Positions 5,309-47,065 of a stretch of DNA of 64,000 bases are shown here, one piece after another; position 1 is the first letter of the stretch; every line of letters starts with the position of its first letter. A program made the translations under genes and the position numbers. The stretch is taken from contig CAVYRM010000001.1 of NCBI GenBank assembly GCA_963770975.1, positions 127,792-191,791 on the forward strand, read 5' to 3'. This DNA comes from an uncultured delta proteobacterium (GTDB taxonomy: Bacteria; Desulfobacterota; Deferrimicrobia; Deferrimicrobiales; Deferrimicrobiaceae). The notes under the pieces are model-generated. The model was not told where the DNA came from. It was given only the letters and a program-made list of their open reading frames with translations, and searched no databases.

Positions 5309-7390
<2,082 letters not shown>

Positions 7391-24076: not shown

Positions 24077-24108
24077 TTCGGACCGACGACCCGATTCCAT
24101 ATGCATTC

Positions 24109-24140
24109 GACAACGGCCCTTCGGGGCCGTTGTCGTTTTC
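24109..24140 (+). terminator. rho-independent terminator after rplQ
   Basis: GACAACGGCCC-TTCG-GGGCCGTTGTC is a perfect GC-rich hairpin followed by GTTTTC. Confidence 0.7.
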
Positions 24141-24164
24141 GGGCCCCGGCGCGGACGAATCCGC

Positions 24165-24212
24165 TTGACGCTCCCCGGGGCCCGGGATACTATGAAAATG
24201 AATTTCATAATC
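24165..24212 (+). promoter_or_regulatory. fur/feoB promoter with an overlapping Fur box
   Basis: TTGACG at 24165-24170, a 17-nt spacer, then TACTAT at 24188-24193. GAAAATGAATTTCATAATC at 24194-24212 matches the GATAATGATAATCATTATC consensus at 14 of 19 positions. Confidence 0.55.
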
Positions 24213-24216
24213 ATAA

Positions 24217-24684
24217 TTGGAGCGGCCCCCCGCCTTGAAGCATCTTCTCGGACGCATCGATCGTGAAATCCTGGACGCCGGCGGGAAAAGGAGCCGGAGC
24301 CGGTCCGTGGTGATGGAGCGTTTCTTCGGATCGCGCGAACACGTCACCGTGGAGGAGCTCGCCCGCTCCGTGAGGAAGAAGCACCCGGGGGTGGGGACCG
24401 TGACGGTTTACCGCACCCTGAAACTCCTGGAACGGATGGGTTACGCGAAGGAACTGGATTTCGGCGAGGGCGTGAAACGGTACGAAAGCAACCTCGCGTC
24501 GCATCATGACCACCTCGTCTGCAGGAAGTGCGGCACGGTCATCGAGTTCGAGAACGCGAACATCGAAAAGCTCCAGGATTCCGTCACGCGGCAGCACGGC
24601 TTCCACCCCACGGCCCACCGCCTGGAAATCTACGGGTTCTGCCGCCGATGCACCCCCGGGGAAGGCACGGGGGGCGCCGGATGA
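24217..24684 (+). CDS. fur: Fur-family transcriptional regulator (probable ferric uptake regulator)
   Basis: HHDHLVCRKCGTVIEF and the C-terminal CxxC match the Fur family. It sits in front of feoB. Confidence 0.85.
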   Translation: MERPPALKHLLGRIDREILDAGGKRSRSRSVVMERFFGSREHVTVEELARSVRKKHPGVGTVTVYRTLKLLERMGYAKELDFGEGVKRYESNLASHHDHLVCRKCGTVIEFENANIEKLQDSVTRQHGFHPTAHRLEIYGFCRRCTPGEGTGGAG

Positions 24685-26651
24685 AAACCGCCTCGATCGT
24701 GGAAACCGCGCAGAACCCGGTGATCCTCGTCGGCAATCCGAACGTCGGGAAAAGCGTCGTTTTCGGCGCTCTCACGGGCAGGTACGTCAACGTCTCGAAT
24801 TACCCGGGCACGACCGTCGAGATCTCCAGGGGAGAGGCGCGCGATCGCGGCACGACCTACGAGGTGATCGACACCCCCGGCGTCTATTCGCTCCTGCCCA
24901 TGTCGGAGGACGAGCAGGTCACCCGGGATATCCTGATGCGGGAGCCCGGCGCGAAGGTCCTGCAGGTGTGCGACGCCAAGAACATGCGCCGATCGCTGAT
25001 GATCACCGTTCAACTCTCCGAGATGGGGGTCCCGCTCGTCCTGGCGGTGAACATGGCCGACGAGGCGAGGGAATGCGGGGTGATGCCGCGCCTGGAATCC
25101 CTCGAGGGCCGGCTGGGGGTACCCGCGGTCCCCACCGTGGCGGTACGGAAAAAGGGTACGGACCGTCTCCTCCCGCTCCTCGTGCATCCATCGCCCTCCA
25201 CCATCCGGATCGACTACGGGGAGAAGATCGAGGCGGCCATCGTGCGGATGGAAAGGCTGCTTCCGGAGGAAACCCCGGTCGGCAAGAGGGCGCTCGCGGT
25301 CATGCTGCTTTGCGGGGACGACTCCCTCGGACCCTGGATATCGGAGAACGTACCCGTCGCGCGCATCCGGGAAATGAACGACGTGAGGAACCGGCTGGTC
25401 GAGGAATCGGGGGAGGAGATCGTCTTCCGCGTGAACCAGGCCCGGCTCTACTGGATCGACCAGTTGCTCGAGGAACTGGGCGTGGAATCTTCCGCTCCCG
25501 CCGGGAGGAGCATCTCCACGGCGTTCGGGCGATACGCGATGGACCCGGTCTACGGGGTCCCGATCCTCGTCGGCGTTCTCTTCCTGGCCTACGAATTCGT
25601 GGGGGTGTTCGGCGCGGGGTTCCTCGTGGACCTGCTGCAGAAATCGTTCTTCGAGAAGTGGATCATTCCGTCCATCGCCGCGCTGATCGACCGGTTCCTG
25701 CCCTCGGCATTCCTGCGGGACTTCCTGGTGGGCCCCTACGGGATGATCTCCATGGCCCTTTCCTACGCGGTCGCGATCGTCCTGCCGATCGTCGGGACGT
25801 TCTTCTTCGGGTTCGGGATCCTGGAGGATTCCGGGTACCTTCCGAGGCTCGCGGTGATGGTGGACCGCCTGTTCAAGAAGATCGGGTGCAACGGCAAGGC
25901 GGTCCTCCCGATGATCCTGGGCCTGGGTTGCGACACGATGGCGACGTTGACCACGAGGATCCTCGAAACGCGGAAGGAACGGATGATCGTCACGCTGCTG
26001 CTCGCCCTGGGCGTCCCGTGCTCCGCGCAGCTGGGCGTGATCCTCGGCATGCTCTCCGACGTGGGGCCGGCGGCGACCATCACATGGCTCGCCTTGCTGG
26101 TGGGCATCATCCTGCTGGTCGGGTTCCTCGCCTCGAAAATCATCCCCGGGGACTCCTCGGACTTCATCCTCGAGATCCCGCCCATCCGGTGGCCGAAGGC
26201 GGGAAACCTTGCCGTCAAGACGATGGCGCGCATCGAGTGGTACCTGAGGGAAGCGGTCCCGCTGTTCCTCCTCGGCACGTTGATCCTGTTCGCAGCGGAC
26301 CGGCTCGGATGGCTGTCGTGGTTGCAGAAGGCGGGCGAGCCGTTGATCGTCCGGGTCCTCGATCTCCCGCCGAAGGCGATGGAGGCGTTCCTGATCGGGT
26401 TCCTCCGGCGGGACTACGGGGCCGCGGGGCTCTTCAGCATGGCGAAGGCCGGGATGCTTTCCCACCTCCAGGTGGTGGTGAGCCTGATCACCATCACGCT
26501 CTTCATTCCCTGCCTTGCGAATCTCCTCGTGATCGTGAAGGAGCACGGGGGGAAGGTCGCGGCAGGGATGGCGTTGTTCATCTTTCCCTTCGCGCTGCTG
26601 GTCGGGGCCGCCGTAAACCTCGTCGCGCGCTGGGCGGGGATCGTTTTCTGA
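24681..26651 (+). CDS. feoB: ferrous iron transporter FeoB
   Basis: N-terminal G-domain VILVGNPNVGKS..DTPG. Polytopic C-terminal half. 656 aa. Its ATG overlaps the fur stop (ATGA). Confidence 0.93.
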   Translation: MKTASIVETAQNPVILVGNPNVGKSVVFGALTGRYVNVSNYPGTTVEISRGEARDRGTTYEVIDTPGVYSLLPMSEDEQVTRDILMREPGAKVLQVCDAKNMRRSLMITVQLSEMGVPLVLAVNMADEARECGVMPRLESLEGRLGVPAVPTVAVRKKGTDRLLPLLVHPSPSTIRIDYGEKIEAAIVRMERLLPEETPVGKRALAVMLLCGDDSLGPWISENVPVARIREMNDVRNRLVEESGEEIVFRVNQARLYWIDQLLEELGVESSAPAGRSISTAFGRYAMDPVYGVPILVGVLFLAYEFVGVFGAGFLVDLLQKSFFEKWIIPSIAALIDRFLPSAFLRDFLVGPYGMISMALSYAVAIVLPIVGTFFFGFGILEDSGYLPRLAVMVDRLFKKIGCNGKAVLPMILGLGCDTMATLTTRILETRKERMIVTLLLALGVPCSAQLGVILGMLSDVGPAATITWLALLVGIILLVGFLASKIIPGDSSDFILEIPPIRWPKAGNLAVKTMARIEWYLREAVPLFLLGTLILFAADRLGWLSWLQKAGEPLIVRVLDLPPKAMEAFLIGFLRRDYGAAGLFSMAKAGMLSHLQVVVSLITITLFIPCLANLLVIVKEHGGKVAAGMALFIFPFALLVGAAVNLVARWAGIVF

Positions 26652-26854
26652 TGGCGGGAGAAACCGTGAAGATCCCGTGCCCGCTTTGCGGGTTCGAAAT
26701 CGATCCGTCGGACCGGGCCTGCCGGTCGGGATGCCCCATGGGAAAGGGATGCACCCTTGTCTGTTGCCCCAGATGTCGCTACTCTTTCCCCATGCCGGAG
26801 TCGAAGACCGTGAATTTCCTCAAGACCCTTCTCTCGAAAGGAAGCCGGAGATGA
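26651..26854 (+). CDS. small Cys-rich protein (67 aa, 8 Cys), a putative metal-binding Feo accessory of unknown function
   Basis: MAGETVKIPCPLCGFEIDPSDRACRSGCPMGKGCTLVCCPRCRYSF.... Its ATG overlaps the feoB stop (TGATG) and its stop overlaps the next gene's ATG (ATGA). It is the tail of track ORF 24506..26854. Confidence 0.55.
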   Translation: MAGETVKIPCPLCGFEIDPSDRACRSGCPMGKGCTLVCCPRCRYSFPMPESKTVNFLKTLLSKGSRR

Positions 26855-27498
26855 CCGAGCAAGGACAGGACGAGATCCTCGAACTCCTGTGGACGCTTCG
26901 GGAGGAGGGGAGGGCGACCCGGTCCGAGCTGCTTCGTTCGACGACGGAAGCAAGCCCCGAGCAGCTGCTCGAGGAGATCCACGCCGGAGGCCTTGTCGAC
27001 GCGTCCCGGGACGAGATCCTTCTCACGAAGAGCGGCGAGGACCGGGCGCGGGGGATCATCCGGCGCCACCGGCTTGCCGAGGTGCTCCTGCAGAACCTGT
27101 TCGAACTGGACAACACCCAGCTGGAACACAGCGCCTGCCAGTTCGAGCACATCCTTTCCGAGCCCGTGGTGGAGAGCGTCTGCACGTTCCTCGGGCACCC
27201 CCCCGTCTGCCCCCACGGGCGGTCCATCCCGAGGGGGGAGTGCTGCAACCGGATCCGCACCGAGATCCGCCCCCTGGTCATGCGGCTGACCGAGGCTTCC
27301 CTCGGGACGACGGTCCGGATCGTGTTCATGACCCCCAAGTCGAAAAAACGGCTCGAGAAGCTTTCCGCCCTCGGGATCGTGCCCGGAAGCCGGCTGAGGA
27401 TCCTCCAACGGACCCCGTCGTACGTCCTCCAGATCGGCCAGACCACCGTGGCCGTCGACCGGGATATCACCGATGAGATCTACGTCAAGGTATCGTAG
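26851..27498 (+). CDS. DtxR/IdeR-family metal-dependent repressor with a C-terminal FeoA/SH3-like domain
   Basis: RRHRLAEVLL...HSACQFEHILSEP is the DtxR metal-site signature. The C-terminal VRIVFMTPKSKKRLEKLSALGIVPGSRLRILQ is FeoA-like. Preferred start is MTEQGQDEILELL at 26851. Confidence 0.8.
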   Translation: MTEQGQDEILELLWTLREEGRATRSELLRSTTEASPEQLLEEIHAGGLVDASRDEILLTKSGEDRARGIIRRHRLAEVLLQNLFELDNTQLEHSACQFEHILSEPVVESVCTFLGHPPVCPHGRSIPRGECCNRIRTEIRPLVMRLTEASLGTTVRIVFMTPKSKKRLEKLSALGIVPGSRLRILQRTPSYVLQIGQTTVAVDRDITDEIYVKVS

Positions 27499-28768
27499 GG
27501 CCGTCGCGCTCTTCCTTTCCGTCTCCCTCGTCGCGGGGACCTTCACGCCGGCTCTCGCCGGTGATCCCGTCGGGACGAGGCAGCCCGCGCTCCTGCTGAA
27601 GTACGCCGCGCCGGACCTCCCGGATGCGGAGGCCCGCAAGGTGCTCGATCCCCTGGCCGGGATCCTCGGAAAGGAGCTCCAGGTCCGCTGGCTTCCCGTT
27701 CCGTCGGAAACCCCCCGGGATGGCCGGGCTCCCGGCGTTCCCCCCGTTCCCGACGACACCGCCCTGCGGCGGATCGCGGGAAAACTCACCAGGGCATCCC
27801 GGTCGATGGACAAGCTGGAGACTTCGGAAGCCGCAAGGGCGCTGGAGGAGGCCGAGAGGGAGTGCCGGTCGTACCGGTTCACGGATGCGACCAGGCCGTT
27901 TCTCGCCGAAATCTTCCTCCGCCGGTCGATCCTGCGCTTCTGGAAGGGAAAAACCTCCGAAGCGGAGGCGTTGGCTGCCCGCGCGCGGGCGATGCGCCCC
28001 GGGTTCTCCCCGGACCCTGCGATGTATTCCCCGCAATTCCTGTCCCTCTGGGAGGCCGCGAAGCGACGCCCCGTGCCGGAGGCGGAACTCCTGGTCCAGT
28101 CCCTCCCTTCCGGCGCGGAAATCTTCATCGACGGGGAGCGGCAGGGGGTCACCCCCTCGCGCGTCAGGATACGGAAGTACGCCCCGCTGCGGGTCCGGGT
28201 CTCCCACCCCGGTTACCGGGACGAGGAAAGGACCGGCCAGTGGCTTCCAGGGGATACGGAGATCCTCGAATTCACCCTGTCGGGCGACCGGGTGGCCCGC
28301 CTCGGAGACCTCCTGTCGCGGGCACCCCGCGAGAAAGGCGCCGGAACCGGCCCTCTGCTGGAAGAGCTCTCCAAGGCGGCGGGAACGGGTCGAGTGGCCG
28401 TATTGACGCTGGAAAAGGATGGAAACGGGGGAGGGTGCCTCGCGCGCCTGTACGGCCATCGGACGGGCGGACGGGACCTGGCCCTTCTCGGGGAGAAGGT
28501 CGTGGCCGGGGGGGAGGAAGCCGCGGAGGTATCCGGGTCCTGGGCGGCGAACGCGCTTGCAGCCGACGGATGGCCGCGTGCGGAACGCGTCGAAAGTCCG
28601 TGGTACTATAGTGCCTGGTTTTGGCTGGGGGTAGCATCGGTTGCGGGATTGGCCGTCGCCCTGGGGGGGGGAGGCGGCGGAGACGGAGGAGGAGGGACCG
28701 GCGGAGGGGGCACCGGCGGAGGAGGAACCGGCGGCGCCACGGACGGTACCGTCGCAGTGAATTTCTAA
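27473..28768 (+). CDS. secreted/membrane PEGA-domain protein with a C-terminal TM helix and a Gly-rich (GGGGT)n tail
   Basis: Signal peptide VALFLSVSLVAGTFTPALAG. PEGA-like SLPSGAEIFIDGERQGVTPSRVRIRKYAPLRVRVSHPGY. TM helix WFWLGVASVAGLAVAL, then GGGGGGDGGGGTGGGGTGGGGTGGATDG. Confidence 0.6.
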   Translation: MRSTSRYRRAVALFLSVSLVAGTFTPALAGDPVGTRQPALLLKYAAPDLPDAEARKVLDPLAGILGKELQVRWLPVPSETPRDGRAPGVPPVPDDTALRRIAGKLTRASRSMDKLETSEAARALEEAERECRSYRFTDATRPFLAEIFLRRSILRFWKGKTSEAEALAARARAMRPGFSPDPAMYSPQFLSLWEAAKRRPVPEAELLVQSLPSGAEIFIDGERQGVTPSRVRIRKYAPLRVRVSHPGYRDEERTGQWLPGDTEILEFTLSGDRVARLGDLLSRAPREKGAGTGPLLEELSKAAGTGRVAVLTLEKDGNGGGCLARLYGHRTGGRDLALLGEKVVAGGEEAAEVSGSWAANALAADGWPRAERVESPWYYSAWFWLGVASVAGLAVALGGGGGGDGGGGTGGGGTGGGGTGGATDGTVAVNF

Positions 28769-28799: not shown

Positions 28800-30140
28800 A
28801 TGAGCTGGATCCTCACCATTCTCCTGTTGCTCGTCTCCGTGGAAACCTTCGCGGCGGACGCCGAAACCGTGATCCGGGGTCTCGGGAACACGAAGATCAT
28901 CCGTTCGAACGAACCTCCCCACACGATCCTAAACGAAGCCTGCGTCGCGTGCCATCCCAAGGAAAAATTCGAGTACTGGCTTCTCATCTACAAGGGAAAG
29001 GCGCCTTCGCTGACCGTTGACCGGCCGGAAGGCAGCGATCAACGGGCCGGCACCGAAGCAGCCCCCGTTCGCGGGAAGACCAACCGGTACAATTCCCACG
29101 ACTCCCTCGCCTGCAATCTGTGCCACTTGCAGAACCCCACGGAAGCGGCCCCCAAGTTCATCGTGGACGTCGCCGACCTGTGCCGGCTGTGCCATCCGGG
29201 CACGGGGATGCACCACCTCCCCGATCCCGCCGGCCTGGCGCTGGTGAAGAAGGCGATCCTGGGCAGGAAACTGCCCGGAAGGGACGGGGAGCCGCTGTGC
29301 ACGACGTGTCACAAGACCCACGAATCCACCTACACGATGCGCCAGGTATACGCCGAGACGCTCTGGGAAGGGAAGGTTCCCAACCCCCACGGGAGCAGGA
29401 TGCTCTGTTTCGCCTGCCACACAGGACGGATCAAGGAAGGACAGGAAATCCGCCTCACGACGGGAAGGGACAACATCAAGCTCTGCAACGCGTGCCACAC
29501 GAAGCCGGGGGTGAAAAAGAGCCCGCACATCGTGGACGCGACCTCCTCCGAGGGGACGTGGAGGATGGATTACCTCGGGTATCCCCTCAACCAGGGGAAG
29601 CTCGTCTGCTCCACCTGCCACGACGAGGTCTCCCACGGGAAACGGGACCCCGCGAACCCGAAATTCCTTCGGGGCGGCCCGTACGCGGACCCGGACAAGT
29701 TCTGCTATCGTTGTCACCTGGAGGACAAGGATGTCTACAACAACCCCCACCGCCAGGTCGACGGGTTCGGGAGAATCCGGGCGGAGTCCTGCCTCTTCTG
29801 CCACCGCAACAACCCGGATGCGGGAAAGGACGTGCCGGCGAACCGCGAGATGGTGGCCGAGGACCGGGTGGTGTGCTCGAACTGCCACCAGCTGCGCGCG
29901 CACCCCGGCGTCGATCACCTGATTCTCCTGAAGGGGGAGAAGGCCGCCCGGAAGGAAGAGTACGAACGGAGACAGCAGATTCGCCTGCCCCTTGCCGGAG
30001 ATGGGAAGATCACGTGCAGCACATGCCACAACCCTCACGCGAAGGGGGTTCTGAAGGGGGAGAGCGGCGTGGGCGGCGGCTCGAAATGGCGCGTGCCGGA
30101 CTTCAGGGAGGTCTGCGCGCCTTGCCACGGTAGATACTGA
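28800..30140 (+). CDS. dodecaheme c-type cytochrome, periplasmic or outer
   Basis: Signal peptide MSWILTILLLLVSVETFAA. 12 CxxCH motifs. Confidence 0.88.
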   Translation: MSWILTILLLLVSVETFAADAETVIRGLGNTKIIRSNEPPHTILNEACVACHPKEKFEYWLLIYKGKAPSLTVDRPEGSDQRAGTEAAPVRGKTNRYNSHDSLACNLCHLQNPTEAAPKFIVDVADLCRLCHPGTGMHHLPDPAGLALVKKAILGRKLPGRDGEPLCTTCHKTHESTYTMRQVYAETLWEGKVPNPHGSRMLCFACHTGRIKEGQEIRLTTGRDNIKLCNACHTKPGVKKSPHIVDATSSEGTWRMDYLGYPLNQGKLVCSTCHDEVSHGKRDPANPKFLRGGPYADPDKFCYRCHLEDKDVYNNPHRQVDGFGRIRAESCLFCHRNNPDAGKDVPANREMVAEDRVVCSNCHQLRAHPGVDHLILLKGEKAARKEEYERRQQIRLPLAGDGKITCSTCHNPHAKGVLKGESGVGGGSKWRVPDFREVCAPCHGRY

Positions 30141-30164: not shown

Positions 30165-30830
30165 ATGATCGACCTGTTCGTGAAAGGGGGATTCGCGATG
30201 TACCCCCTGCTGATCCTATCCGTGGTGACGCTCGCGATCGCCATCGAGCGGACGGTGTACCTGCGCAAGGCGCGGATCAACACGGGGGAGTTCATGGAAA
30301 CCATCAACAGCTTCCTCTCCAGGAACGCGCTGGAGGAAGCGCACCGGTACTGCGATTCCACTTCGGGTCCGATCTCCCGGATCATCAAGGCGGGACTGAA
30401 GAACCAGAAACGAGGCCGGGAAGACGTGATCCGGTCCATCGAGGACGCCGGCGCGATCGAGGTCGCCCAGCTGGAGCGGGGGATCCTCATCATACAGACC
30501 ATATCGAAGCTCGCCCCGCTCATCGGGCTGTTCGGCACCGTGACCGGGATGATACGCTCTTTCCAGGCGATCGGAGGCGCCGGCGGGGAGAATCCCAGGC
30601 TGGTCGCCGCGGGGATCGGCGAGGCGCTGGTCGCCACCGCGGCCGGGCTGGTCGTCGCCATACCGGCGTACTTCCTGGCGTTCTATTTCATGAACCGGGT
30701 GAGCAAGTTCATCCTGGAGATGCAGAAGAGCTCGATCCAGTTCCTCGACGGCCTGGGCGAGCTCGAGGAGATGATCGCGGAGCGCACCCAGCGGTTCGAC
30801 ACGGTGGGAGGAGACTACCTTGAAGTTTAA
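30165..30830 (+). CDS. exbB: MotA/TolQ/ExbB proton-channel protein
   Basis: 3 TM helices. The family signature region LIGLFGTVTGMIRSF is present. Confidence 0.85.
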   Translation: MIDLFVKGGFAMYPLLILSVVTLAIAIERTVYLRKARINTGEFMETINSFLSRNALEEAHRYCDSTSGPISRIIKAGLKNQKRGREDVIRSIEDAGAIEVAQLERGILIIQTISKLAPLIGLFGTVTGMIRSFQAIGGAGGENPRLVAAGIGEALVATAAGLVVAIPAYFLAFYFMNRVSKFILEMQKSSIQFLDGLGELEEMIAERTQRFDTVGGDYLEV

Positions 30831-31221
30831 GAGAAGGCTCCAGGGAGACGAGGAGGGGATCCCGATCACCAACCTCGTGGACGTGCTCTTTCTGCTGATC
30901 GTCTTCTTCATGATGTCCACGGTGTTGAGTTTCGACCGCGGATTCGGGGTGAAGCTTCCGGAAAGCGGGGCCGCCGGGACGATCTCGAACAAGGGCGTCA
31001 GCGTGCTGATCTCCCGCGAGGGGAAGGTGTACGTGGACGGGAACGAGACGCCGATCGACCGCGTGGGAGAGGTGGTCAAGGCGCGGCAGCGGACGGCCGG
31101 GAACAACGTCGTGCTGAAAAGCGACCAGGACACGCGGTTCCAGGCGATCGCCGACGTGATGGACCGGCTGCTCGCCGTCGGGATCGGGGACCTCTCCCTC
31201 CCCGTCCTGGAAAGAAGGTAG
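30820..31221 (+). CDS. exbD: ExbD/TolR biopolymer transport protein
   Basis: Single N-terminal TM helix ITNLVDVLFLLIVFFMM plus a periplasmic domain. Its start overlaps the exbB end. Confidence 0.85.
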   Translation: MKFKRRLQGDEEGIPITNLVDVLFLLIVFFMMSTVLSFDRGFGVKLPESGAAGTISNKGVSVLISREGKVYVDGNETPIDRVGEVVKARQRTAGNNVVLKSDQDTRFQAIADVMDRLLAVGIGDLSLPVLERR

Positions 31222-31234
31222 GAGAGGCAACGCC

Positions 31235-32110
31235 TTGGAAGGGAAGGGCGTACGGAGGGTATTGCAGCCGGCCTTGTACCTCGGCATCGCGATCCTCGTC
31301 CACGCCCTCTTATTCCTCGTCCCGTCCGGGACCGGATCGAAACCCGCGGACGGGACCACCCGGGGGATGCGGATCCGCGCCGTCGCGGCCCCCGGAAGGG
31401 CTCCTTCGCCGCCGGTCACACCCTCTCCCGCCCGCTTGGCGCCGCAGACCGCGGAGATACCACCGAAGTTCGGCACCGGTCCGAAGGGTCCCCAGGGATC
31501 CGAACCGGCATCCGGATCCGGGGGAACCCCGGGCGGGGGTGGCGGTCCACCGGTGGACGGCGCGGCGACGCCGGGTGCCCCGCCGGTCGGAGAGTACGCG
31601 GCGTACATCGCCCGCTTGCGGTCCGAAGGGGTGCAGGGATGGGCCCGGGACAGCGCGAGCCGGATGCGCCAGGGATGGAAAGGCACGGGGAAAGGCGGAG
31701 GGGGGTTGGGGATCGGGTATGGAGCCGGCGCGGGAGCCGGAGCGGGTGGGCGCGGAGGGGGAAGCGGCCGCAGCGGCGGGGGTGGAACGGGTGACGGCTA
31801 CCTCGACTCGCGGGTGCGGATGGTGGTGACCAGCTACCCTCCGACCACGATCGAAAGACGGTTCACGATGGTGGCGTACCCGGACCTGAAGGTGAAGAAG
31901 CACGAGTACACCGCCGGGTGGTGGAACGTGTTTATCCAGATGCGGACCGATGCCTCGGGGAAGGTGACGCAAACCCGGGTTCTCCGGCCGGAAACGGACG
32001 GACCGCTGGAGAGGATCTTCGTGGACCAGGTGCGCAAGGAGATCGGCCGGTGGACCTTCGATCGCGCGGCCGCCGAAATCAACGTCGACGTGCGGTTCTA
32101 TGTCGAATAG
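31235..32110 (+). CDS. tonB: TonB-like energy transducer
   Basis: N-terminal TM anchor ALYLGIAILVHALLFLV. Pro/Gly-rich spacer. The C-terminal ~80 aa domain resembles the TonB C-terminal domain only weakly. Confidence 0.6.
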   Translation: MEGKGVRRVLQPALYLGIAILVHALLFLVPSGTGSKPADGTTRGMRIRAVAAPGRAPSPPVTPSPARLAPQTAEIPPKFGTGPKGPQGSEPASGSGGTPGGGGGPPVDGAATPGAPPVGEYAAYIARLRSEGVQGWARDSASRMRQGWKGTGKGGGGLGIGYGAGAGAGAGGRGGGSGRSGGGGTGDGYLDSRVRMVVTSYPPTTIERRFTMVAYPDLKVKKHEYTAGWWNVFIQMRTDASGKVTQTRVLRPETDGPLERIFVDQVRKEIGRWTFDRAAAEINVDVRFYVE

Positions 32111-32867
32111 GTCGGCAACCGCCGTTTTTCGCCGGGTTTGCTTTCCTTTCGCCGTCATCGGGGTGCTGGTTTCCGGCGCATCCCTCGCATCCGACCAGGA
32201 AGGGTGCCTCCTTTGCCACCGTCTGTCCCTCCGGGTGGTGGTCGACGGGACGGAAAGGAACCTGAAGGTAGACGATCGAGCCGCCTGGATCCACGAGGCC
32301 CTCTTCTGCTCGGATTGCCACCCGGATGCCAGGAACGCCCCGCATCCGGCACCTCCGGGCGCCGCACAGTGCATCGGGGAGTGCCATGGAGGCGGGGAAG
32401 GCGCGATCTCATCGCATCGGAGAGCCGCCTTCGGCGGGTTGACCGAAACCCACAGGCGGGTCAGCCCGGGGAAAGGCGCCTGTTTGCCGTGCCACAGGGC
32501 TTCGGACGCGAAAACGGGACATGCGGCGACGGAACGACGGTGCGACGGGTGCCATCCCGGGGAGCGGGCCGCCGCGTCGAGAGGGCCGCACGCCCGCCTG
32601 GCGGATTCCCCCGGATTCTGTTCCGGGTGCCATCCGCCGCATCCCGCGTTGACCGGAAAGGGGGATCCGACGATCCAGGCCTGTGCCGCGTCCGGCTGCC
32701 ATGCCCGGGTGTCCCCCGCGATGAAGGCGTTGGCCGACCATCGAACATCGCGCGGGGCGGGCAGCGGAATCGGGAAGGCGGCGCTTTTCTTCCTCCTGGC
32801 CTGTGCGGGATGGCTCGCCGGATCGGCATTGTCCCCGAAGCCGGGTCGCGGGGAGGGAGGAACATGA
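32100..32867 (+). CDS. heptaheme c-type cytochrome with a C-terminal membrane anchor (CbcA-like)
   Basis: Signal peptide. Five CxxCH motifs plus CIGECH (CX3CH) and CAASGCH (CX4CH). C-terminal hydrophobic AALFFLLACAGWLAG. The ATG at 32100 overlaps the tonB stop. Confidence 0.8.
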   Translation: MSNRSATAVFRRVCFPFAVIGVLVSGASLASDQEGCLLCHRLSLRVVVDGTERNLKVDDRAAWIHEALFCSDCHPDARNAPHPAPPGAAQCIGECHGGGEGAISSHRRAAFGGLTETHRRVSPGKGACLPCHRASDAKTGHAATERRCDGCHPGERAAASRGPHARLADSPGFCSGCHPPHPALTGKGDPTIQACAASGCHARVSPAMKALADHRTSRGAGSGIGKAALFFLLACAGWLAGSALSPKPGRGEGGT

Positions 32868-33802
32868 ACTGGATCCAGCCTCCCGAAACGGTCCGGAGAT
32901 TCACGATCCACCAGATCCTGCAGCACGGATTCGCGGTGGCGCTGTGGGTCCTTCTCCTCGGGAGCGCGATCGCGGCCGGGTGGGGAATCTCCGGCGTGCG
33001 TTCCCTCCATGCGGTCGTCGGAATCGCGGGCGGAGCCTTCATCGTGTACCATGCGCTGACACTGGCGGCGATCGGGATCCTCCTCGACATGCCTGCCGAG
33101 AGAATCGCTTTCCTTCCCTGGGGGCGGGACTGGGATGCGATCCGCCGCCGGAAGGGGAGCACCGAAGACCCGGGTAAATACGTTCCGGCGGAGAAAGGGG
33201 ATTACCTCGCGATCCTGGCATGGAGCCTGTTCGCGGTCCTGTCCGGGATCCTTCTTCGATGGCCCTCCTTCTTCGGCGTCCCGGGATCCGGCGCGTACGA
33301 CTGGATCCGCGCCGCGCACGCCGGGTTCGGCGCCTCGCTCACGGTCCACATCCTCGTCGTCCACCTTCCCGGCCGCTGGACGCACGCTTCCCCCGCGTTC
33401 CGACGCGCCGTCCTTTCCGGCACCGTTCCGCTATCGGAGGCGGAAAAGAGGGGGGGGTGGATCCGCGACCTCGTTGCGCTCGGAGTGCTCGTCCCCGCTC
33501 CCGAGGAAACCGTCACGGCGGAGGAGAAGGAATCCGGGACGGTCAGGGAGTTGCTGGAGCGGGGAAACCGCCTTGTCCGCGAAGGGATGTACACGGAAGC
33601 GTGCGATGCCTACGAGGCGGCGCTTCGCCTGTTGCCGGACTATTCGCAGGCGCGGTTCAACTTCGCGGTCGCGCTGTTCCGGGGAGGGCGCAGGGAGGAA
33701 GCGACGACGCAGTTGAGGATATTCCTCGAAAAGGATCCCTTCAACCCGATGGTGGAGAAGGCGAGGGGAATGATCGAGGAGATCGAGGGGTCCGCGGAAT
33801 GA
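32864..33802 (+). CDS. diheme b-type cytochrome membrane subunit (FdnI/HyaC/CbcB-like) fused to a C-terminal TPR domain
   Basis: VRRFTIHQILQHGFAVALWV is the cytochrome b RFxxxxRxxH signature. 4 TM helices carry conserved His. The C-terminal ~100 aa is TPR-like (YTEACDAYEAALRLLPDYSQARFNFAVALFRGG). The ATG at 32864 is the preferred start. Confidence 0.75.
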   Translation: MNWIQPPETVRRFTIHQILQHGFAVALWVLLLGSAIAAGWGISGVRSLHAVVGIAGGAFIVYHALTLAAIGILLDMPAERIAFLPWGRDWDAIRRRKGSTEDPGKYVPAEKGDYLAILAWSLFAVLSGILLRWPSFFGVPGSGAYDWIRAAHAGFGASLTVHILVVHLPGRWTHASPAFRRAVLSGTVPLSEAEKRGGWIRDLVALGVLVPAPEETVTAEEKESGTVRELLERGNRLVREGMYTEACDAYEAALRLLPDYSQARFNFAVALFRGGRREEATTQLRIFLEKDPFNPMVEKARGMIEEIEGSAE

Positions 33803-34344
33803 AGCGAATCGCCGAACGCATCGGGCCGGCCGCGGCCGTCGTCGCGACACTGCTCCTCTTCTGGACCGTGGCCAGGGGAGGAAGCGGGCACGTCAGGAAG
33901 GTCCCTTCCCGTACGGCATCGGCTTCTTTTCACGGCGACGGCACGATCCGCGAGGTTCCCCCGGATCCCGACTGCGCCGGACCGAAATGCCATGCCGCAT
34001 CCTCCCATCGGGCGTCGGGGCCGCGGAGCGCTTTCCTCAACCAGCACGCGGAAATCGTCTCCTGCCTGGGCTGCCACGGCCGGGAGCCGGAACGCGGATG
34101 GGGCGTGCCGAAAGATGGAGGAAAGGGTGGGATTCGCCTGGTCTACTCTCCAAGCCCGGAGCCCGGGAAGCAACACGCCGGTATCGGTCCACCGGCCTCC
34201 TGCACCCGGTGCCATTCGCCTGAAGGCCGGCGAGCGATCCTCTCCGCCGGGGTGAAGGGACTGGGAGAAGGGTTCGATTCGCCGATCGCTCTTCGGATGA
34301 TCGAGGGGGGAGGACGAAAGTGGGTCCCGGACGATATGCGATAA
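33799..34344 (+). CDS. small triheme c-type cytochrome
   Basis: Signal peptide. CAGPKCH (CX4CH), CLGCH and CTRCH. The ATG overlaps the preceding stop (ATGA). Confidence 0.7.
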   Translation: MKRIAERIGPAAAVVATLLLFWTVARGGSGHVRKVPSRTASASFHGDGTIREVPPDPDCAGPKCHAASSHRASGPRSAFLNQHAEIVSCLGCHGREPERGWGVPKDGGKGGIRLVYSPSPEPGKQHAGIGPPASCTRCHSPEGRRAILSAGVKGLGEGFDSPIALRMIEGGGRKWVPDDMR

Positions 34345-35210
34345 CGGCGTTCCTCCTCTTTCTATGCGCGGCGTTGCCGACCGGCTCGGCACGCGGCGCG
34401 GAGGGGGGGAGCGATGCGATCTGGATACGCCAGGCCCAGTCCCGGCAGCTCTCGACCCCGTACGACGTGGCCGTGGACCGGAAAGGGGTCGTCTTCCTGC
34501 TCGAATCCGGTGCAAGGACCATATCGATCTTCTCCCCGCGGGGAGAGTTCCTCCGCGAGATCGCCGGAAAGGGAGGATGGAAGGATCCCTCGGCGATCGC
34601 GATCGGATCGTCCGGCTCGATTTTCCTCGCGGACGGCGTCGGATCCAGGGTATTGGAGATCGATCTCTCCGGAAAGGTGAAGAGGGAGTACGTCGTAGGC
34701 GGAAACGCGAGAGTGACGGGGGTTTCGGTTCTTGGAGACGCGGTCTACTGCGTGGACAACCGGAACCACCGGGTCGCGGTATTCCGGAAGCCCGGCGTCC
34801 CGCCGGAATTCTGGGGAAAGCGGGGGGAAGGCCCGGGGCAGTTCCAATCCCCGTTCCGGATCGCCGTCGATTCTTCCGGACGCGTATTCGTCACGGACGT
34901 CCTGAACGCGCGCGTGCAGTGGTTCACCGCGTTCGGCCGACACCTCGGGACCCTGAAACGATTCGGGGCGGCGGAGGGAAAGATCTTCCGCCCCACGGGG
35001 ATCGCCCTGGACCTTCGAGGCCGGATCTGGATCGGGGACAGCTACACCGGCCTGGTGCAGCTTTTCGGGGAAGGCGGCGAATTCGCGAAGACGCTTCGCG
35101 CGAAGGGACGCCCCGTCGTCTTCGGCGACCCCGTCGGGCTGGCCGTGGCGCCGGGCGGCATCTGGGTTGCGGACCAGCGGGAGAATCGCCTGGTCCTGTT
35201 CCGGGACTGA
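34320..35210 (+). CDS. secreted NHL-repeat six-bladed beta-propeller protein
   Basis: Signal peptide ITAFLLFLCAALPTGSA. Repeated motifs YDVAVD/IAIGSSGSIFLAD/VYCVDNRNHRVAVF/IAVDSSGRVFVTD/IALDLRGRIWIGD/LAVAPGGIWVAD are characteristic of NHL repeats. Confidence 0.8.
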   Translation: MGPGRYAITAFLLFLCAALPTGSARGAEGGSDAIWIRQAQSRQLSTPYDVAVDRKGVVFLLESGARTISIFSPRGEFLREIAGKGGWKDPSAIAIGSSGSIFLADGVGSRVLEIDLSGKVKREYVVGGNARVTGVSVLGDAVYCVDNRNHRVAVFRKPGVPPEFWGKRGEGPGQFQSPFRIAVDSSGRVFVTDVLNARVQWFTAFGRHLGTLKRFGAAEGKIFRPTGIALDLRGRIWIGDSYTGLVQLFGEGGEFAKTLRAKGRPVVFGDPVGLAVAPGGIWVADQRENRLVLFRD

Positions 35211-35229: not shown

Positions 35230-35436
35230 ATGGGAAACATGAAATGGGAATACGGCCAGATCTTCGTTCGTCAACCGGATGTGTTCGGAGGGCTTCCGAA
35301 AAACGGGCTCGAAATGGAGAAGATGAACCGCGCGGGCACGGAAGGGTGGGAGATGGTCGGGGTGGTCCCCTTCACCATCCCTTCGGGGGAAGTACGCGGT
35401 GCGTTCATCCTCTTCAAACGGGAGATCGCCGGCTGA
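35230..35436 (+). CDS. small DUF4177-like protein
   Basis: MGNMKWEYGQIFVRQ...GWEMVGVVP...AFILFKRE, 68 aa. The start at 35230 is preferred over the track ORF's 35167. Confidence 0.55.
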   Translation: MGNMKWEYGQIFVRQPDVFGGLPKNGLEMEKMNRAGTEGWEMVGVVPFTIPSGEVRGAFILFKREIAG

Positions 35437-35455: not shown

Positions 35456-38217
35456 TTGAAACGGTTCATCGTCCCCCTCGTACTCCTCCTCGCCTTCCTT
35501 GCGGAAGGACGCGGGAATGCAAGGCCTGCCTTCGACCAGGAGAAATGCTCCCTTTGCCACATCAAGGAGAGCGTGTTCTTCGACTCCTCCTTCCTGCCGC
35601 CGGACGGGTTGAAATCCTTCGGGGAAGAGCGTCTTTGCGGAAGCTGCCACAACGGTTCCGTCCAGGACAGCCGGGCCGAACTGTGGAGGGGAACGCAGCA
35701 TCCGGCCGCAGGGTCGGGAAAAGGGAGGTGCACGGGGTGCCACTCTCCGCATGCCAAGGGGGGGTGGGGAGCTCTCGCGGGGAACGGGGCGTCGTTGAGA
35801 AAGGGGGGGAACGCCCTCTGCGGAGGGTGCCATGCGGCACAGTCCGGGAACGGCGGACTCCTGCACGGAAAGCAGATCGGGAATGCCGGATGCAAGGAGT
35901 GTCACGTCGCCCACGGCGGAACCGGGAAGGCCCTGCTTCGCGATACCGGGAGCACGCTCTGCCGGAGATGCCACGGATCGATCAATCCGGAGAAGGACGG
36001 CGGCCATCCCCTCGACGGCAGGAAGGTGCGGGCCGGTGAATCCGCGGCGCTGCCCGGCTGCCTGGCGTGCCATCCCGTCCACGGGAAAAAGGGCGATACG
36101 GTGGACCTCGCCGACCGGTGCGGCTCCTGCCACGCATTCGGGGGAAAAGGGAAGGGGGCCGAGACCCGGTCGCACTCCGGCGTGGGAAAGTGCACCACGT
36201 GCCATACGTTCCACTCGCGGACCGGGGATGGCGGCCGTGCATTCCGCGGAAAGGATATCCGGTCGGATGCGTTGTGCCGGTCGTGCCACCCTTCCTTCAA
36301 CGCCGCGGATGTCCGGGCGGGACGGGCTGCCGGCACGCACGTCACGATCTCCGGGGAGGGACGCCGCGACATCTGCGGCCGTTGCCACCAACTGCACGGC
36401 GCGCCCGCCGGGACACCGCTGCTTCGCTCGCGAAAGTCCTACTTCTGCCTGGACTGCCACGACAGCCAGAACACGATCCGGGAGAGCAGCGGCATCTCGC
36501 TGGCGCATCCCGTGTTCGAGAAGGTCACGAAAGGGCGGCTGGCCGACGTGGTCCGGGAGAAAAAGGTTGCGGTCGGCCCGGCCGGAGAGATCATCTGCGC
36601 CACCTGCCACAAGGTGCACGGAGCGGAAAAGGAGACGCCGCTGCTCGCTTCCGGGGCCGACAAGGGGGAGAGCTGTTCCTGGTGTCACCCGGGCATGCGT
36701 GGGAAATCCCACGGAAAGACCGGCGGCTGGACGTCTCCCGGATGCGATGGGTGCCACCCGGTTCACGGACGAAAGAGTGCGGACGGCGACCCGTGGGGCC
36801 TGCTCTGCCGAAAATGCCATCCGCGGTCTTCCGCGCACCAGGCCGGAATCGGCGATCGCGTCACGGGCAGGGCGATGGACCTCCCGGAGTTCGATCCGCG
36901 GGGAAGAACGGCCGCGTACGGTGCCATCACATGTCCGACGTGTCACGACCCCCACGGGGACAGCGCCCTGCCGAAACGCCTGCGGAAACAGTACCGGCCG
37001 AACGGCTTCCTCTGCACCACCTGCCACCGGTCCCAGGACACGGTCGTCCTCACCCCCCACGATCTGCGGGGCATCGCGGGGGATGGCGTCTGCGAACCTT
37101 GCCACAAACCCCATGCGGGGGAATCTCCGTGGATGTGGGGATTGGCGAGGGGGGCAGGCGAAACGGGGGAGGAATCGTGCCGGGCCTGCCACCTCGCGGG
37201 AGAAGGGAAGGGACTGGGAATGCCGGTCCCCCGGGGGGGGCACCCGACGAACGTCCTTGCTTCCCGCCCCCTTCCGGACCGGTTTCCGAGGATCGGACCC
37301 GAAGGTCGTTTCTCCGAAACGGGGGTCATCTCCTGCTCCACATGCCACGTCGTGCACGGCCGCGGAGTCATGCCGGTGGGCCAGGGAGTCGGAAAACTCC
37401 TGCGAGCTTCGGATGCTTCCCGGAGCAACCCCGTCCGCCATCGGCGATCTGCGCGGAATGCCACCCGGGGAAGGACCGCCGGCACGGGGCGGCGGACTGT
37501 CTCGCCTGTCATCCTCCGCACAGGGATGAAAAGGCGGGAGCGGCCTGCCTGAAATGCCACCCCGGCCAGAAGGGCGCACTGGTCGAACGACACGGGAAAA
37601 CGGGGGCCGCCTGCGGTTCCTGCCACAAGTTGCACGCCAAGGATGCGGAGGCGGGAAATTCCGGGGAACGCTGCGTCCGTTGCCATTCCACCACCCGGAA
37701 GATCCTGAAAACCCCCCATGCGGCGCTGGGAGCGAACGCCTGCGACGGGTGCCACCCGGCCCACAAGGAAATCCAGGTTCACACCTTCCGCCCGAAGCTG
37801 GGCGAGGAGATATTTCCACCGGACCTGCTGTGCCTGCGATGCCATCGCGAAGGAAGAACGGCCCCGGCGCCGAAGTGGCCGAACCATCCGGCGCGTACGC
37901 AGGAGGTGCCGACGAACTACGGCGCGAAAGTCATCCTGGAAACCCCGGTCACGATGGTGGGTCGGTACAAGGAGGGTTCACGCCCGATGTTCCCGCTGTT
38001 CGACGCGGCAGGGAAGCCGGCGCTCTCCGGCACGATGGGGTGCCTGACCTGCCACGATCCCCATGCCGGGGGCGCACGGAACGACAAACCTGCGGCGAAT
38101 GCCTACCTTCGGGATGCGAGCTCGGTTTTTCTGGCCGAAATTTGTGGTTCCTGCCACAAGGAGAATACGGTGGAAAGGGTCCGGAAATTCCACGTCATGC
38201 CGAGAGTGCCGCGATAA
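35456..38217 (+). CDS. giant ~30-heme c-type cytochrome, apparently frameshifted at about 37400-37450
   Basis: TTG at 35456 gives the signal peptide MKRFIVPLVLLLAFLAEGRGNA. 21 CxxCH motifs lie in the frame of ORF 35399..37552. 9 more lie in the frame of ORF 36067..38217. Adding one C to the C4 run at 37429-37432 joins them (..SNPRPPSAICAECHPG..). Confidence 0.7.
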
Positions 38218-38273: not shown

Positions 38274-38657
38274 ATGGGACGGATTGGCGACAGCAAAGAG
38301 GTGACGATCCCCCTGAAGAACCCGGGACGGGGGAAGCGGAGGATACCGCTGTTCATCGCCGCCGGTCTCGTCTTTGCGGCGGTGTTCATCTCCCTCTTCC
38401 GGGACATGGGCGTCGTGGACAGTTGGAAGCTCGATCGAACGGAACGGCAGCTGCGCGAGGAGGTCGTGAAGCTTCGGCAGGAAAACGCGATTTTGAAACA
38501 AACGGTCGAGGACCTGCGCAGCAACCCTGCGGTCATCGAACAGGAAGCCCGGCGGATCGGTCTCATAAAGGAGGGGGAGAACGTGATCGTCGTTCCCCCG
38601 AAACCGGATGCCTCCTCCAAATCGCCCGTAAAACCCACTCCAACGAAGCGTCCATAG
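38274..38657 (+). CDS. ftsB: septum formation initiator FtsB/DivIC-family protein
   Basis: TM helix IPLFIAAGLVFAAVFISLF, then the coiled coil LDRTERQLREEVVKLRQENAILKQTVEDLRSNPAVIEQEARR. 127 aa. Confidence 0.75.
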   Translation: MGRIGDSKEVTIPLKNPGRGKRRIPLFIAAGLVFAAVFISLFRDMGVVDSWKLDRTERQLREEVVKLRQENAILKQTVEDLRSNPAVIEQEARRIGLIKEGENVIVVPPKPDASSKSPVKPTPTKRP

Positions 38658-38694
38658 GGCACAGGAGCGTCTTCCTACGCCGTGCCGGGGCACG

Positions 38695-38723
38695 TTGACA
38701 CCTCTGCCGGATAGGGGATAAAC
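38695..38723 (+). promoter_or_regulatory. candidate sigma70 promoter for argS
   Basis: TTGACA at 38695-38700, a 17-nt spacer, then ATAAAC at 38718-38723, which is a weak -10. Confidence 0.3.
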
Positions 38724-38760
38724 TGCCTACTTTACGAATATTTATCCATCGAGGGGGCAG

Positions 38761-44991: not shown

Positions 44992-45022
44992 CCCCGAATC
45001 AGGTCGCAAAGGAGCCGGAGCA

Positions 45023-46391: not shown

Positions 46392-47055
46392 ATGTTTCGC
46401 GTCAAGATCTGCGGGGTGACCCGCCGGGAAGATGCCGAGTGCGCGGTGGAGTGCGGCGCGGAGGCGATCGGCATCAACTTCTTCAGGGGTTCGCCAAGGT
46501 TCGTTTCGGAAGGAGTCGCCCGGGGAATCGTCCGCTCGGTAAGGGGCCGGGCGGAAATCGTCGGGGTGTTCGTCAACGAAACGCCGGAACGGATCGTGTC
46601 GATCTGCGGGATGCTTGGGATCGACAGGGTGCAGTTGCACGGGGATGAGCCTCCCGGGGATGCCTTGCGCATCCCGTTCTGGCGGATGAAGGCGATCCAT
46701 GCGGAACGCGCACCGGATCTTCCGGCACTCCTGGCGTATCCGTGCGATGCGTTCCTGTTCGACGCGGGAGGGGAAGGGCGCTTACGGCGGGACCGGCAGA
46801 ATGCTCGATTGGAGCGGACTCATGGGACGATTCCCCGGCGTCGCGGGGAGACACGGTTCGGCGGGAACGGGAAGGCCGTGGGTCCTCGCGGGAGGCCTTA
46901 CTCCGGAGAACGTCGAGGAAGCCATCGTTGCCGCGAGGCCTTTCGGGGTGGACACGGCTTCCGGCGTGGAATCTTCTCCGGGGAGGAAAGATCCGTTGAA
47001 AGTCGCGTTGTTCATCGAAAAGGCGAAAGCGGGGTTCCGTGCCATTGAAACGTAA
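46392..47055 (+). CDS. trpF: phosphoribosylanthranilate isomerase, frameshifted at about 46765-46780
   Basis: [16 protein letters not shown]...LFDAGGEG is in the frame of ORF 46392..47048. The C-terminal half ([15 protein letters not shown]...[11 protein letters not shown]...GVDTASGVE) is in the frame of ORF 46699..47055. Confidence 0.85.
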
Positions 47056-47065
47056 AGGAAACCGG

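Follow-up and report, generated by a model that had tools for sequence, protein, structure and literature searches.

An apparent inner-membrane cytochrome b that carries a tetratricopeptide repeat (TPR) domain at its C-terminus and directly follows a membrane-anchored heptaheme cytochrome c raises the question of which electron-transfer system the two proteins serve and what the TPR tail contributes to it. Such a gene pair is located at positions 32100-33802 of a 64,000-nucleotide stretch of DNA from an uncultured delta proteobacterium of the family Deferrimicrobiaceae (GenBank assembly GCA_963770975.1, contig CAVYRM010000001.1, positions 127,792 to 191,791 of the forward strand), which as a whole is referred to here as the window. 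The two proteins, denoted c7 and b-TPR, are the core of a ten-gene module conserved among uncultured subsurface bacteria and, by analogy with known systems, fairly likely represent a Cbc-type menaquinol:cytochrome c oxidoreductase that would feed an extracellular electron-transfer chain, equipped with a TPR docking domain and encoded in a probably iron-responsive array. Within extracellular electron transfer, the quinol oxidases of the inner membrane are the step about which least is understood; only CymA, ImcH, CbcL and CbcBA are known to have been studied, and none of them in those uncultured phyla that are dominant in many iron-rich habitats of the subsurface. A sequence-only reading of the window had already described a seven-heme cytochrome c with a C-terminal anchor, an ATGA-overlapping four-helix diheme b cytochrome of the FdnI type, two non-canonical heme sites and a TPR tail of about 100 residues on the b subunit, all of which were confirmed at 32100-33802 by the evidence given below; the surrounding module was absent from that reading.

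The heptaheme cytochrome c subunit

The c7 and b-TPR genes are regarded as one unit on the basis of the ATGA overlap between the c7 stop codon and the b-TPR start at 32864, of their being neighbours in each locus that extends far enough to contain both, and of their fusion into single proteins of 572-650 residues in three of the related loci (L005, L006 and L007; the L numbers designate loci related to that of the window). The gene fusions constitute strong evidence that the two proteins form one complex, which is predicted to reside in the inner membrane.

The c7 gene (32100..32867, + strand) encodes a protein of 255 residues with a signal peptide, seven heme motifs and a C-terminal transmembrane (TM) anchor, the hydrophobic segments being placed by hydropathy at residues 5-32 (signal peptide, ASLA/SD) and 221-246 (anchor). 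In order, the heme motifs read CLLCH, CSDCH, CIGECH, CLPCH, CDGCH, CSGCH and CAASGCH, corresponding to five CXXCH motifs together with a CX3CH motif at site 3 and a CX4CH motif at site 7. A homologue search resulted in 78 clusters with identities of 40-96%, and every one of the 78 retains the seven motifs in unchanged order, with the CX3CH and CX4CH sites among them, which rules out a chance origin. Outside the motifs, an alignment of 39 sequences contains exactly seven further invariant histidines (H65, H82, H106, H118, H164, H181 and H214), the number needed to provide every heme with a distal ligand, which implies that all seven predicted hemes are bis-His coordinated. The last of these residues, H214, is located ahead of the C-terminal anchor, and the anchor itself contains no histidine in the same alignment. 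With its heme motifs, distal ligands and signal sequence, c7 thus has the features expected of an exported, periplasmic multiheme cytochrome c.

Distant versions of c7 (L006 7989-9941, L007 8533-10464, L019 4726-5622 and L008 3721-4500) likewise have a CX3CH motif at site 3 and differ in the spacer at site 7, which is CX4CH in the family of the window, in L005 and in L054, CX5CH in L008, and CX9CH in L006, L007 and L019. The motifs CX3CH, CX4CH, CX11CH, CX15CH and CX17CH have all been catalogued in reviews as minority types (PMC11492766), a single CX3CH motif is present in the Geobacter ImcH, and the NCBIfam entry TIGR01904 describes a CxxxxCH/CxxCH domain. The two unusual sites in c7 are genuine and conserved, but they do not represent new chemistry. 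The CX5CH and CX9CH variants of the distant loci are not among the known motifs quoted in PMC11492766.

The cytochrome b domain

The b-TPR gene (32864-33802, + strand) encodes 312 residues with four hydrophobic helices and the C-terminal TPR domain, and its stop codon overlaps the following ATG, again as ATGA. An AlphaFold2 model of the full chain has a mean pLDDT (predicted local distance difference test score) of 91.3. In the model, the cytochrome b domain (residues 1-215, 32864..33508, + strand) adopts the FdnI fold with four TM helices at residues 15-39, 45-73, 108-132 and 142-173. Five histidines are invariant among 115 family members, one in TM1 (H21), two in TM2 (H49 and H63) and two in TM4 (H152 and H167), and the same 1 + 2 + 2 pattern recurs in distant lineages. 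The His63, located 14 residues past the ligand H49, does not vary even among the b-TPR lineages farthest from the window, and a further residue, His162, is nearly invariant within the family.

A profile search of the PDB with the whole b-TPR protein was swamped by TPR matches and was redone with the b domain (residues 1-215) alone, for which the sole significant match was FdnI, the gamma subunit of the E. coli formate dehydrogenase-N (1kqf_C, E=5.8e-5). The same chain also came first in a Foldseek search of the PDB with the b-TPR model (E=3.1e-5, 213 aligned columns, TM-score 0.67 on the target). In the profile alignment, H49, H152 and H167 of the b domain correspond to H57, H155 and H169 of FdnI, and the loop GKY..EK is aligned with GKYNAGQK, while H21 is assigned as an FdnI-type ligand by position only. 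These four invariant histidines correspond to the ligands of the two b hemes of FdnI in the 1KQF structure. One predicted heme is located near the periplasm, coordinated by H49 and H152, and another near the cytoplasm, coordinated by H21 and H167, with the conserved loop GKY..EK.DY beside the latter, lower heme. The Pfam cytochrome b family PF01292 matches 11 of 30 b-TPR family members, with a best E-value of 9e-11.

Homologues of the b domain were sought both in a word-indexed search (71 clusters) and in an exhaustive HMMER search over 1.84 billion representatives. The latter delineates a tight clade scoring above 170 bits, after which the scores drop to approximately 50 bits, and by this gap any relation to the CbcBA proteins of Geobacter would be remote. 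Those distant matches that have names are annotated generically as "formate dehydrogenase gamma" or "cytochrome b/b6" and none of them is from Geobacter; a scan of a genome collection returned only metagenome-assembled genomes (MAGs) of the b-TPR clade itself. Of the five full-length proteins ranked first past the gap, four again possess a C-terminal TPR (P0215-P0218, with P0219 being the one without), and one of these (P0217/P0269) has an N-terminal cytochrome c domain besides the b and TPR domains.

The TPR domain

The TPR domain occupies residues from about 216 to 312 (33509..33802 including the stop codon, + strand) and consists of two TPR repeats and a capping helix. Pfam TPR families match residues 228-305, each above its gathering score: TPR_14 with E=1e-7 and 32.4 bits (cut-off 23.5), TPR_2 with 30.8 bits (cut-off 27) and TPR_19 with 29.1 bits (cut-off 25). 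In the AlphaFold2 model the region contains five TPR helices within residues 219-309 with pLDDT above 90, and its Foldseek matches are both designed and natural TPR proteins. TPR domains of Pfam are found on every b-TPR homologue among the matches listed, which comprise the best 120 of 139 clusters from a search with the full-length protein and 71 of 71 clusters from the word-indexed search with the b domain only. Nearly all of the homologues are 301-334 residues long, the few shorter or longer ones being fragments or mis-calls.

Three independent arguments place the TPR domain in the cytoplasm. The distribution of lysine and arginine residues over the successive loops of b-TPR is 2/0/8/0/6, as judged by the positive-inside rule; the termini of the homologous FdnI (1KQF) are cytoplasmic; and in the fused c-b-TPR proteins five TM helices separate the periplasmic c domain from the TPR, which by helix count is again predicted to lie on the cytoplasmic side.

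In comparisons between distant lineages the TPR domain is the better conserved part of the protein. It shows 35-41% identity with an alignment score of about 175 over approximately 92 residues, whereas the b domain shows 26-33% identity with scores of 81-109 over up to 215 residues, so that the score per residue of the TPR is about four times that of the b domain. Two TPR motifs, PxYSQARFN and DPFNP, are almost invariant. Such conservation, exceeding that of the redox domain to which the TPR is attached, argues for a strongly constrained binding partner, and the domain is proposed to be a protein-docking module.

Two of the related loci display other arrangements of these domains. In L019 (about 6350-6700) an in-frame stop codon lies between the b and TPR domains. 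In L009 (6001-8148), where no ExbBD genes are present, a PF01292 cytochrome b without a TPR adjoins a five-heme cytochrome c and is followed by a separate membrane-anchored TPR protein of 313 residues, an NHL propeller and two cytochromes.

A conserved ten-gene module

The c7 and b-TPR genes are the fifth and sixth in a module with the order 12-heme cytochrome, TolQ/ExbB, TolR/ExbD, TonB/TolA-like protein, c7, b-TPR, triheme cytochrome, NHL propeller, DUF4177 protein and an approximately 30-heme cytochrome, and the order is constant across some 40 loci that belong to several lineages distant from one another. It rests on two independent samples. When the window proteins were compared by blastp with all open reading frames (ORFs) of loci found through b-TPR, the module order was seen in 19 loci, five of which (L006, L007, L008, L019 and L020) are distant, with b-TPR proteins only 26-30% identical to that of the window; L006 is from a "Candidatus Poribacteria" MAG. 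A scan of metagenome contigs seeded with DUF4177 gave 33 loci, and on every sufficiently long contig the module genes and their order were the same. Nothing was found in the literature searched that describes either a cytochrome b-TPR fusion or the ten-gene module, which is limited negative evidence, and ExbB and NHL also go unmentioned in the paper on the MBNT15 genomes.

All the remaining genes of the module are likewise on the + strand. The first (28800..30140) encodes a 12-heme c-type cytochrome of 446 residues with a signal peptide. It is followed by genes of the MotA_ExbB (PF01618) and ExbD (PF02472) families in tandem. The former (30165..30830) encodes a TolQ/ExbB-family proton-channel subunit of 221 residues with three TM helices (PF01618 E=4e-33), for which the best match in the PDB is the E. 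coli TolQ (E=2e-15), as compared with E=7e-12 for ExbB; by sequence, the predicted motor protein is no more distant from TolQ than from ExbB. In all 23 of the module TolQ/ExbB proteins inspected a C-terminal motif GG[DE]Y[LI]E[VIF] is found, which forms the extreme C-terminus in 22 of them and is followed by eight more residues in the ExbB ORF of L006. The tail that bears it (window 30726-30827, ExbB residues 188-221) is cytoplasmic and lies outside the region aligned with the E. coli TolQ and ExbB. The latter gene of the tandem (30820..31221) encodes a TolR/ExbD-family subunit of 133 residues (PF02472 E=7e-22).

The fourth gene (31235..32110) encodes 291 residues with an N-terminal TM helix, a Pro/Gly-rich linker and a C-terminal domain of approximately 95 residues. 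In an alignment of its homologues, His23 of the TM helix is invariant and the C-terminal domain is conserved. Nothing was matched by the protein in Pfam or in a full-length profile search of the PDB; a profile of the C-terminal 100 residues gave eight PDB matches, all of them TonB C-terminal domains, with weak E-values of 0.3-1.1, and hhalign aligned the C-terminal profile with the E. coli TonB with a probability of 64% and E=6e-5. The name TonB/TolA-like is therefore a weak assignment. The linker of the protein is Gly/Ala-rich and of low complexity.

Downstream of b-TPR, and overlapping its stop codon with the start, is a gene (33799..34344) for a membrane-anchored triheme cytochrome of 181 residues with the motifs CAGPKCH, CLGCH and CTRCH, which has a weak match to TIGR01904. 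The next two genes encode a secreted NHL-repeat beta-propeller of 296 residues (34320..35210, NHL E=3e-20) and a DUF4177 protein of 68 residues without a signal peptide (35230..35436). The DUF4177 gene is the best conserved of the module, with 57-88% identity across lineages as opposed to 26-50% for the cytochromes. The module ends with a giant multiheme cytochrome (35456..38217) encoded in two frames with 21 + 9 CXXCH motifs and a frameshift between 37441 and 37447. Its relatives are encoded by a single ORF of 920-1200 residues (for example 923 residues in L015), and the frameshift may be either a sequencing or assembly error or the sign of a real pseudogene. In some of the related loci, a gene for a DAO-like protein of 426 residues follows the giant cytochrome, which is not the case in the window.

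Genomic context and a Fur-box-like operator

In the window, the module is preceded by rpoC, ribosomal protein operons, rpoA-rplQ, fur, feoB, a DtxR/IdeR-type regulator gene and a PEGA gene, and it is followed by divIC. The left flank (24217..28768, + strand) is composed of fur (24217-24684), feoB (about 24681-26651), the DtxR/IdeR-type gene (26677-27498) and the PEGA gene (27473-28768). The product of 26677-27498 contains an Fe_dep_repr_C domain and a FeoA/SH3-like domain, which identifies it as an iron-dependent regulator of the DtxR/IdeR type and not as a plain FeoA, so that two iron regulators precede the module. The PEGA protein ends with a hydrophobic helix and a long Gly-rich tail (GGGGGDGGGGTGGGGTGGGGTGG...VAVNF). 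This flank is specific to the Deferrimicrobiota-like lineage and is missing from L006-L008, L019, L020 and L054.

From fur to divIC all intergenic gaps are of 31 nucleotides or less and eight junctions overlap. The interval between rplQ and fur (24100..24216, + strand) contains the GC-rich rplQ terminator hairpin, a promoter and an operator, and is the probable start of the whole array of fur, feoB, dtxR, PEGA and the module. The sole good sigma-70-like promoter of the region is at 24165-24193 (TTGACG-17-TACTAT), and directly after its -10 box there is an AT-rich Fur-box-like element at 24194-24218 (GAAAATGAATTTCATAATCATAATT), which with 14 of 19 positions is the best Fur-box match of the window. 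The core of the element, ATGAAAATGAATTTCATAATCA, is kept upstream of fur in four relatives, in which the flanking intergenic DNA has diverged. The tight arrangement behind fur, feoB and the DtxR-type gene, together with the conserved Fur-box-like operator, suggests that in the lineage of the window the expression of the module is probably iron-responsive.

Comparison with known systems

The closest parallel to the gene pair in its architecture is CbcBA of Geobacter sulfurreducens (GSU0593-0594), a c-then-b operon of which fused c-b versions exist in other phyla. In both, the gene for a seven-heme periplasmic c subunit with a C-terminal membrane helix directly precedes the gene for a four-helix diheme b subunit that annotation pipelines name "thiosulfate reductase-like"; CbcBA is an inner-membrane complex and the presumed menaquinol oxidase of an extracellular electron-transfer pathway. 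By its description, though, CbcB has three histidines with the fourth ligand provided by the tail of CbcA, whereas the b domain in the window has five and the c7 anchor none. CbcBA is also neighboured by a BccR-type sigma-54 regulator, while no sigma-54 or BccR-type activator was found in the window, where the neighbours are fur, feoB, the DtxR-type and PEGA genes upstream and divIC and argS downstream, and CbcBA is described without a TPR and without the TolQR/ExbBD-TonB-NHL-DUF4177 module. The sequence-only reading had likened the pair to the CbcBA and CbcL modules of Geobacter; of this, the c-then-b architecture was upheld, whereas membership in the CbcBA family was not demonstrated: neither the 3 + 1 histidine scheme nor the regulator is found, and the relatives outside the clade score only about 50 bits. 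The pair is best described as a likely analogue of CbcBA and not as a demonstrated orthologue, set apart from it by the published description and by the drop to approximately 50 bits.

FdnI (1KQF chain C) has in common with the b domain the four TM helices, the cytoplasmic termini, the three aligned heme ligands and a GKY..QK loop next to the quinone site, which is aligned with the GKY..EK loop of b-TPR. It differs in that the identity is 17%, that its partner is FdnGH instead of a heptaheme c, that the b domain in the window has the extra invariant His63 and the C-terminal TPR, and that the electron flow is probably reversed. The CbcL/MtrH/MtoC family also combines a multiheme c with a HydC/FdnI-like diheme b in a quinol/quinone oxidoreductase of extracellular electron transfer, and the layout of CbcL, with the c part N-terminal and the b part C-terminal, is that of the fusions in L005-L007. 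CbcL is, on the other hand, a single polypeptide that lacks a TPR and has nine hemes and six TM helices, whereas the window has seven hemes and 4 (+1) helices distributed over two genes, and the fused relatives, with seven motifs and five helices, differ from it in the same way. ImcH is similarly a seven-heme inner-membrane quinol oxidase with one CX3CH and six CXXCH motifs, but it belongs to the NapC/NirT-like class, has three N-terminal TM helices and no b partner, and its CX3CH motif is in another position.

The motor genes resemble the Tol-Pal and TonB systems in containing a TolQ/ExbB protein, a TolR/ExbD protein and a candidate TonB/TolA-type protein with a histidine in its N-terminal helix and a putatively TonB-like C-terminal domain, and the tol-pal cluster shares with the module a beta-propeller and a TPR element as well. 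In contrast to those systems, Pal, TolB and a TonB-dependent receptor are not encoded, the propeller is of the NHL type, five cytochrome genes are interleaved, and the TPR is predicted to be cytoplasmic and fused to cytochrome b, whereas that of CpoB is periplasmic. Large multiheme cytochromes beside NHL propellers are also encoded in clusters of D. ferrophilus (DFE_0448-0451 and 0461-0465) and in the uet cluster of "Ca. Tenderia", which are associated with extracellular electron exchange; in the available portions of their descriptions there is no mention of a bc-type quinol module with a TPR, of TolQR/ExbBD-TonB or of DUF4177.

Proposed function and alternative explanations

In the proposed mechanism, menaquinol would be oxidized at a site on the cytoplasmic side beside the lower b heme, in the position of the quinone in FdnI and next to the GKY..EK.DY loop. 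The electrons would cross the membrane via the two b hemes to the heptaheme chain of c7 and then pass to the triheme, 12-heme and approximately 30-heme cytochromes and the NHL propeller, and finally to an acceptor outside the cell or in the periplasm, for which Fe(III) is the most likely candidate. If the quinol site is cytoplasmic, as the analogy to FdnI suggests, outward flow would consume membrane potential; such a route has been proposed for low-potential respiration via CbcBA, for which a low yield has been reported. An outward direction toward Fe(III) appears likely because the lineage is predicted to be iron-reducing, MBNT15/Deferrimicrobium genomes having been interpreted as those of organotrophic iron reducers, and because clusters of NHL propellers and cytochromes have been associated with extracellular electron exchange.

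The TPR domain may then connect the redox complex to the motor. It is well established that TPR domains recognize C-terminal peptides, such as the EEVD of Hsp70/90 or PTS1, and a speculative model is that the TPR of b-TPR binds either the GG[DE]Y[LI]E[VIF] tail of ExbB/TolQ or the DUF4177 protein, and would thereby tether the redox complex to the proton-driven motor. These partners are suggested since the TPR, the tail and DUF4177 share the cytoplasm, are inherited together and show an unusual degree of conservation. An envelope-spanning redox machine, in which a proton-driven TolQR/ExbBD-TonB-like motor is tethered to a quinol:cytochrome c oxidoreductase via the TPR, which would clamp the tail of the ExbB/TolQ pentamer or DUF4177, is a tentative idea that is more probably wrong than right. 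If true, there would be a mechanical or regulatory coupling between the flux of protons and the export of electrons, for example through a TonB-energized gating or positioning of a porin-less outer cytochrome of about 30 hemes for Fe(III) reduction.

Several observations weigh against the proposed function or parts of it. The b domain of the window has no match to PF01292 or any other Pfam cytochrome b at E<=1, and the profile match to FdnI is modest (E=5.8e-5); in the light of these results b-TPR is regarded as a remote member of the FdnI/PF01292 superfamily, as judged by profile and predicted fold. Two of its conserved histidines, His63 and His162, are superfluous for two bis-His b hemes. 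The AlphaFold2 model of c7, built with the 39-sequence alignment, had a pLDDT of 54.5, which is too poor, and was not used for a fold search. All of the b-TPR and c7 homologues are from metagenomes or MAGs, with no experimentally studied member among them. The sequence does not reveal in which direction the electrons flow, and FdnI is itself a quinone reductase. Within the module, neither a TonB-dependent receptor nor a TolB or Pal gene is present at any locus examined, nor is an outer-membrane beta-barrel or porin encoded, and the contact between the TPR and the ExbB tail is suggested by their co-conservation and shared compartment only. Lastly, about 50 c-hemes encoded in a putatively Fur-controlled operon fit awkwardly with classical derepression under iron starvation.

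The point about direction leads to the reverse reading, in which the heptaheme c would take up electrons from Fe(II), a partner cell or a cathode and the b domain would reduce menaquinone at the cytoplasmic face, as a charge-separating half loop like that of formate dehydrogenase-N. The closest solved relative, FdnI, works inward, homologues of CbcL and MtoC are found both in Fe(III) reducers and in Fe(II) oxidizers so that the family leaves the direction unfixed, and the NHL-plus-cytochrome clusters of D. ferrophilus and "Ca. Tenderia" have been tied to electron uptake. Nevertheless, the MBNT15/Deferrimicrobiota that hold most of the members are predicted organotrophic iron reducers, nothing in the module points to Fe(II) oxidation by an enzyme like Cyc2 or MtoAB, and bis-His hemes typically have low potentials that would suit outward transfer, which together make electron uptake unlikely. 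The iron regulators lead to another reading, namely iron acquisition, where the cytochromes would reduce mineral or chelated Fe(III) in the envelope with electrons from quinol, the TonB-like motor would energize uptake across the outer membrane, FeoB would import the Fe(II), and Fur and DtxR would control the process. The position of the module directly after fur, feoB and the DtxR-type gene in the window and its relatives, with gaps of 31 nucleotides at most or overlaps, and the conserved operator at the sole predicted promoter would fit such a role, as would the classical function of ExbB, ExbD and TonB as the motors of iron uptake. Yet the module persists without fur or feo in the distant L006-L008, L019, L020 and L054, it lacks a TonB-dependent receptor, about 50 c-hemes and two b-hemes would be an iron-expensive way of scavenging iron, and the resemblance of the motor protein to TolQ is no weaker than that to ExbB; an iron-acquisition role is considered improbable as well.

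Two further explanations, both already considered in the sequence-only reading, concern the identity of the b subunit. Pipeline names assigned by the Joint Genome Institute, "thiosulfate reductase cytochrome b subunit" and "cytochrome b subunit of formate dehydrogenase", as well as the fold and the only PDB match being those of FdnI, could indicate a gamma anchor of a formate dehydrogenase, hydrogenase or thiosulfate reductase encoded elsewhere, with the c subunit being incidental. The names are, though, automatic, and genes for catalytic or iron-sulfur subunits, such as those of a formate dehydrogenase or hydrogenase, are absent both from the window and from those related loci that were annotated in full, with the ORF-level comparison of the other loci showing only module genes between the module ends. 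The c7 and b genes are furthermore translationally coupled and are fused in three loci, and the b-TPR clade is separated from other PF01292 proteins by the drop from above 170 to approximately 50 bits. The missing catalytic genes and the c-b fusions rule out the gamma-anchor explanation for practical purposes, and it is left with very little probability. Even less is left for the possibility that the TPR is a separate gene joined to b by a sequencing or assembly frameshift. An apparent frameshift does exist nearby in the window, in the giant cytochrome, and the split in L019 and the separate TPR gene beside the non-TPR b in L009 show that the two domains can be apart, but in the window the reading frame is continuous, the whole chain is modelled with a pLDDT of 91, and the TPR is on the b polypeptide in every listed homologue, nearly all of them of the same 301-334 residues, by which a frameshift origin of the fusion is refuted.

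A c7 with the signature of two CXXCH, one CX3CH, three CXXCH and one CX4-9CH motif, in combination with a TPR-tailed cytochrome b, can serve as an easily recognised marker of the conserved ten-gene system, both in bacteria of the Deferrimicrobiota-like type and in several further lineages. The unusual trio of a TPR that is better conserved than its redox domain, an invariant ExbB/TolQ tail and a highly conserved cytoplasmic DUF4177 protein gives a concrete hypothesis for the coupling of a proton-driven motor with the exit of respiratory electrons, a coupling that is not known to have been described, and it is this association with a TolQR/ExbBD-TonB-like motor that could prove to be truly new. 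The fur, feoB and dtxR genes with the conserved operator would in addition provide a handle on the link between iron reduction and iron homeostasis.

Other features of the window

Downstream of divIC the window contains argS, trp genes, accD, lptD, lepA, lepB and pyr genes, and the presence of LptD indicates that the organism has an outer membrane, which exported electrons would have to cross. At 38657-38761, between divIC and argS, a gene for a GAF-GGDEF protein of approximately 710 residues that is found in the relatives L001-L005 is missing. The trp cluster is composed of trpE, trpGD, trpC, two trpB-like genes and trpA, the trpB-like pair being PALP-family genes located at 44900-46381 and 47039-48259.

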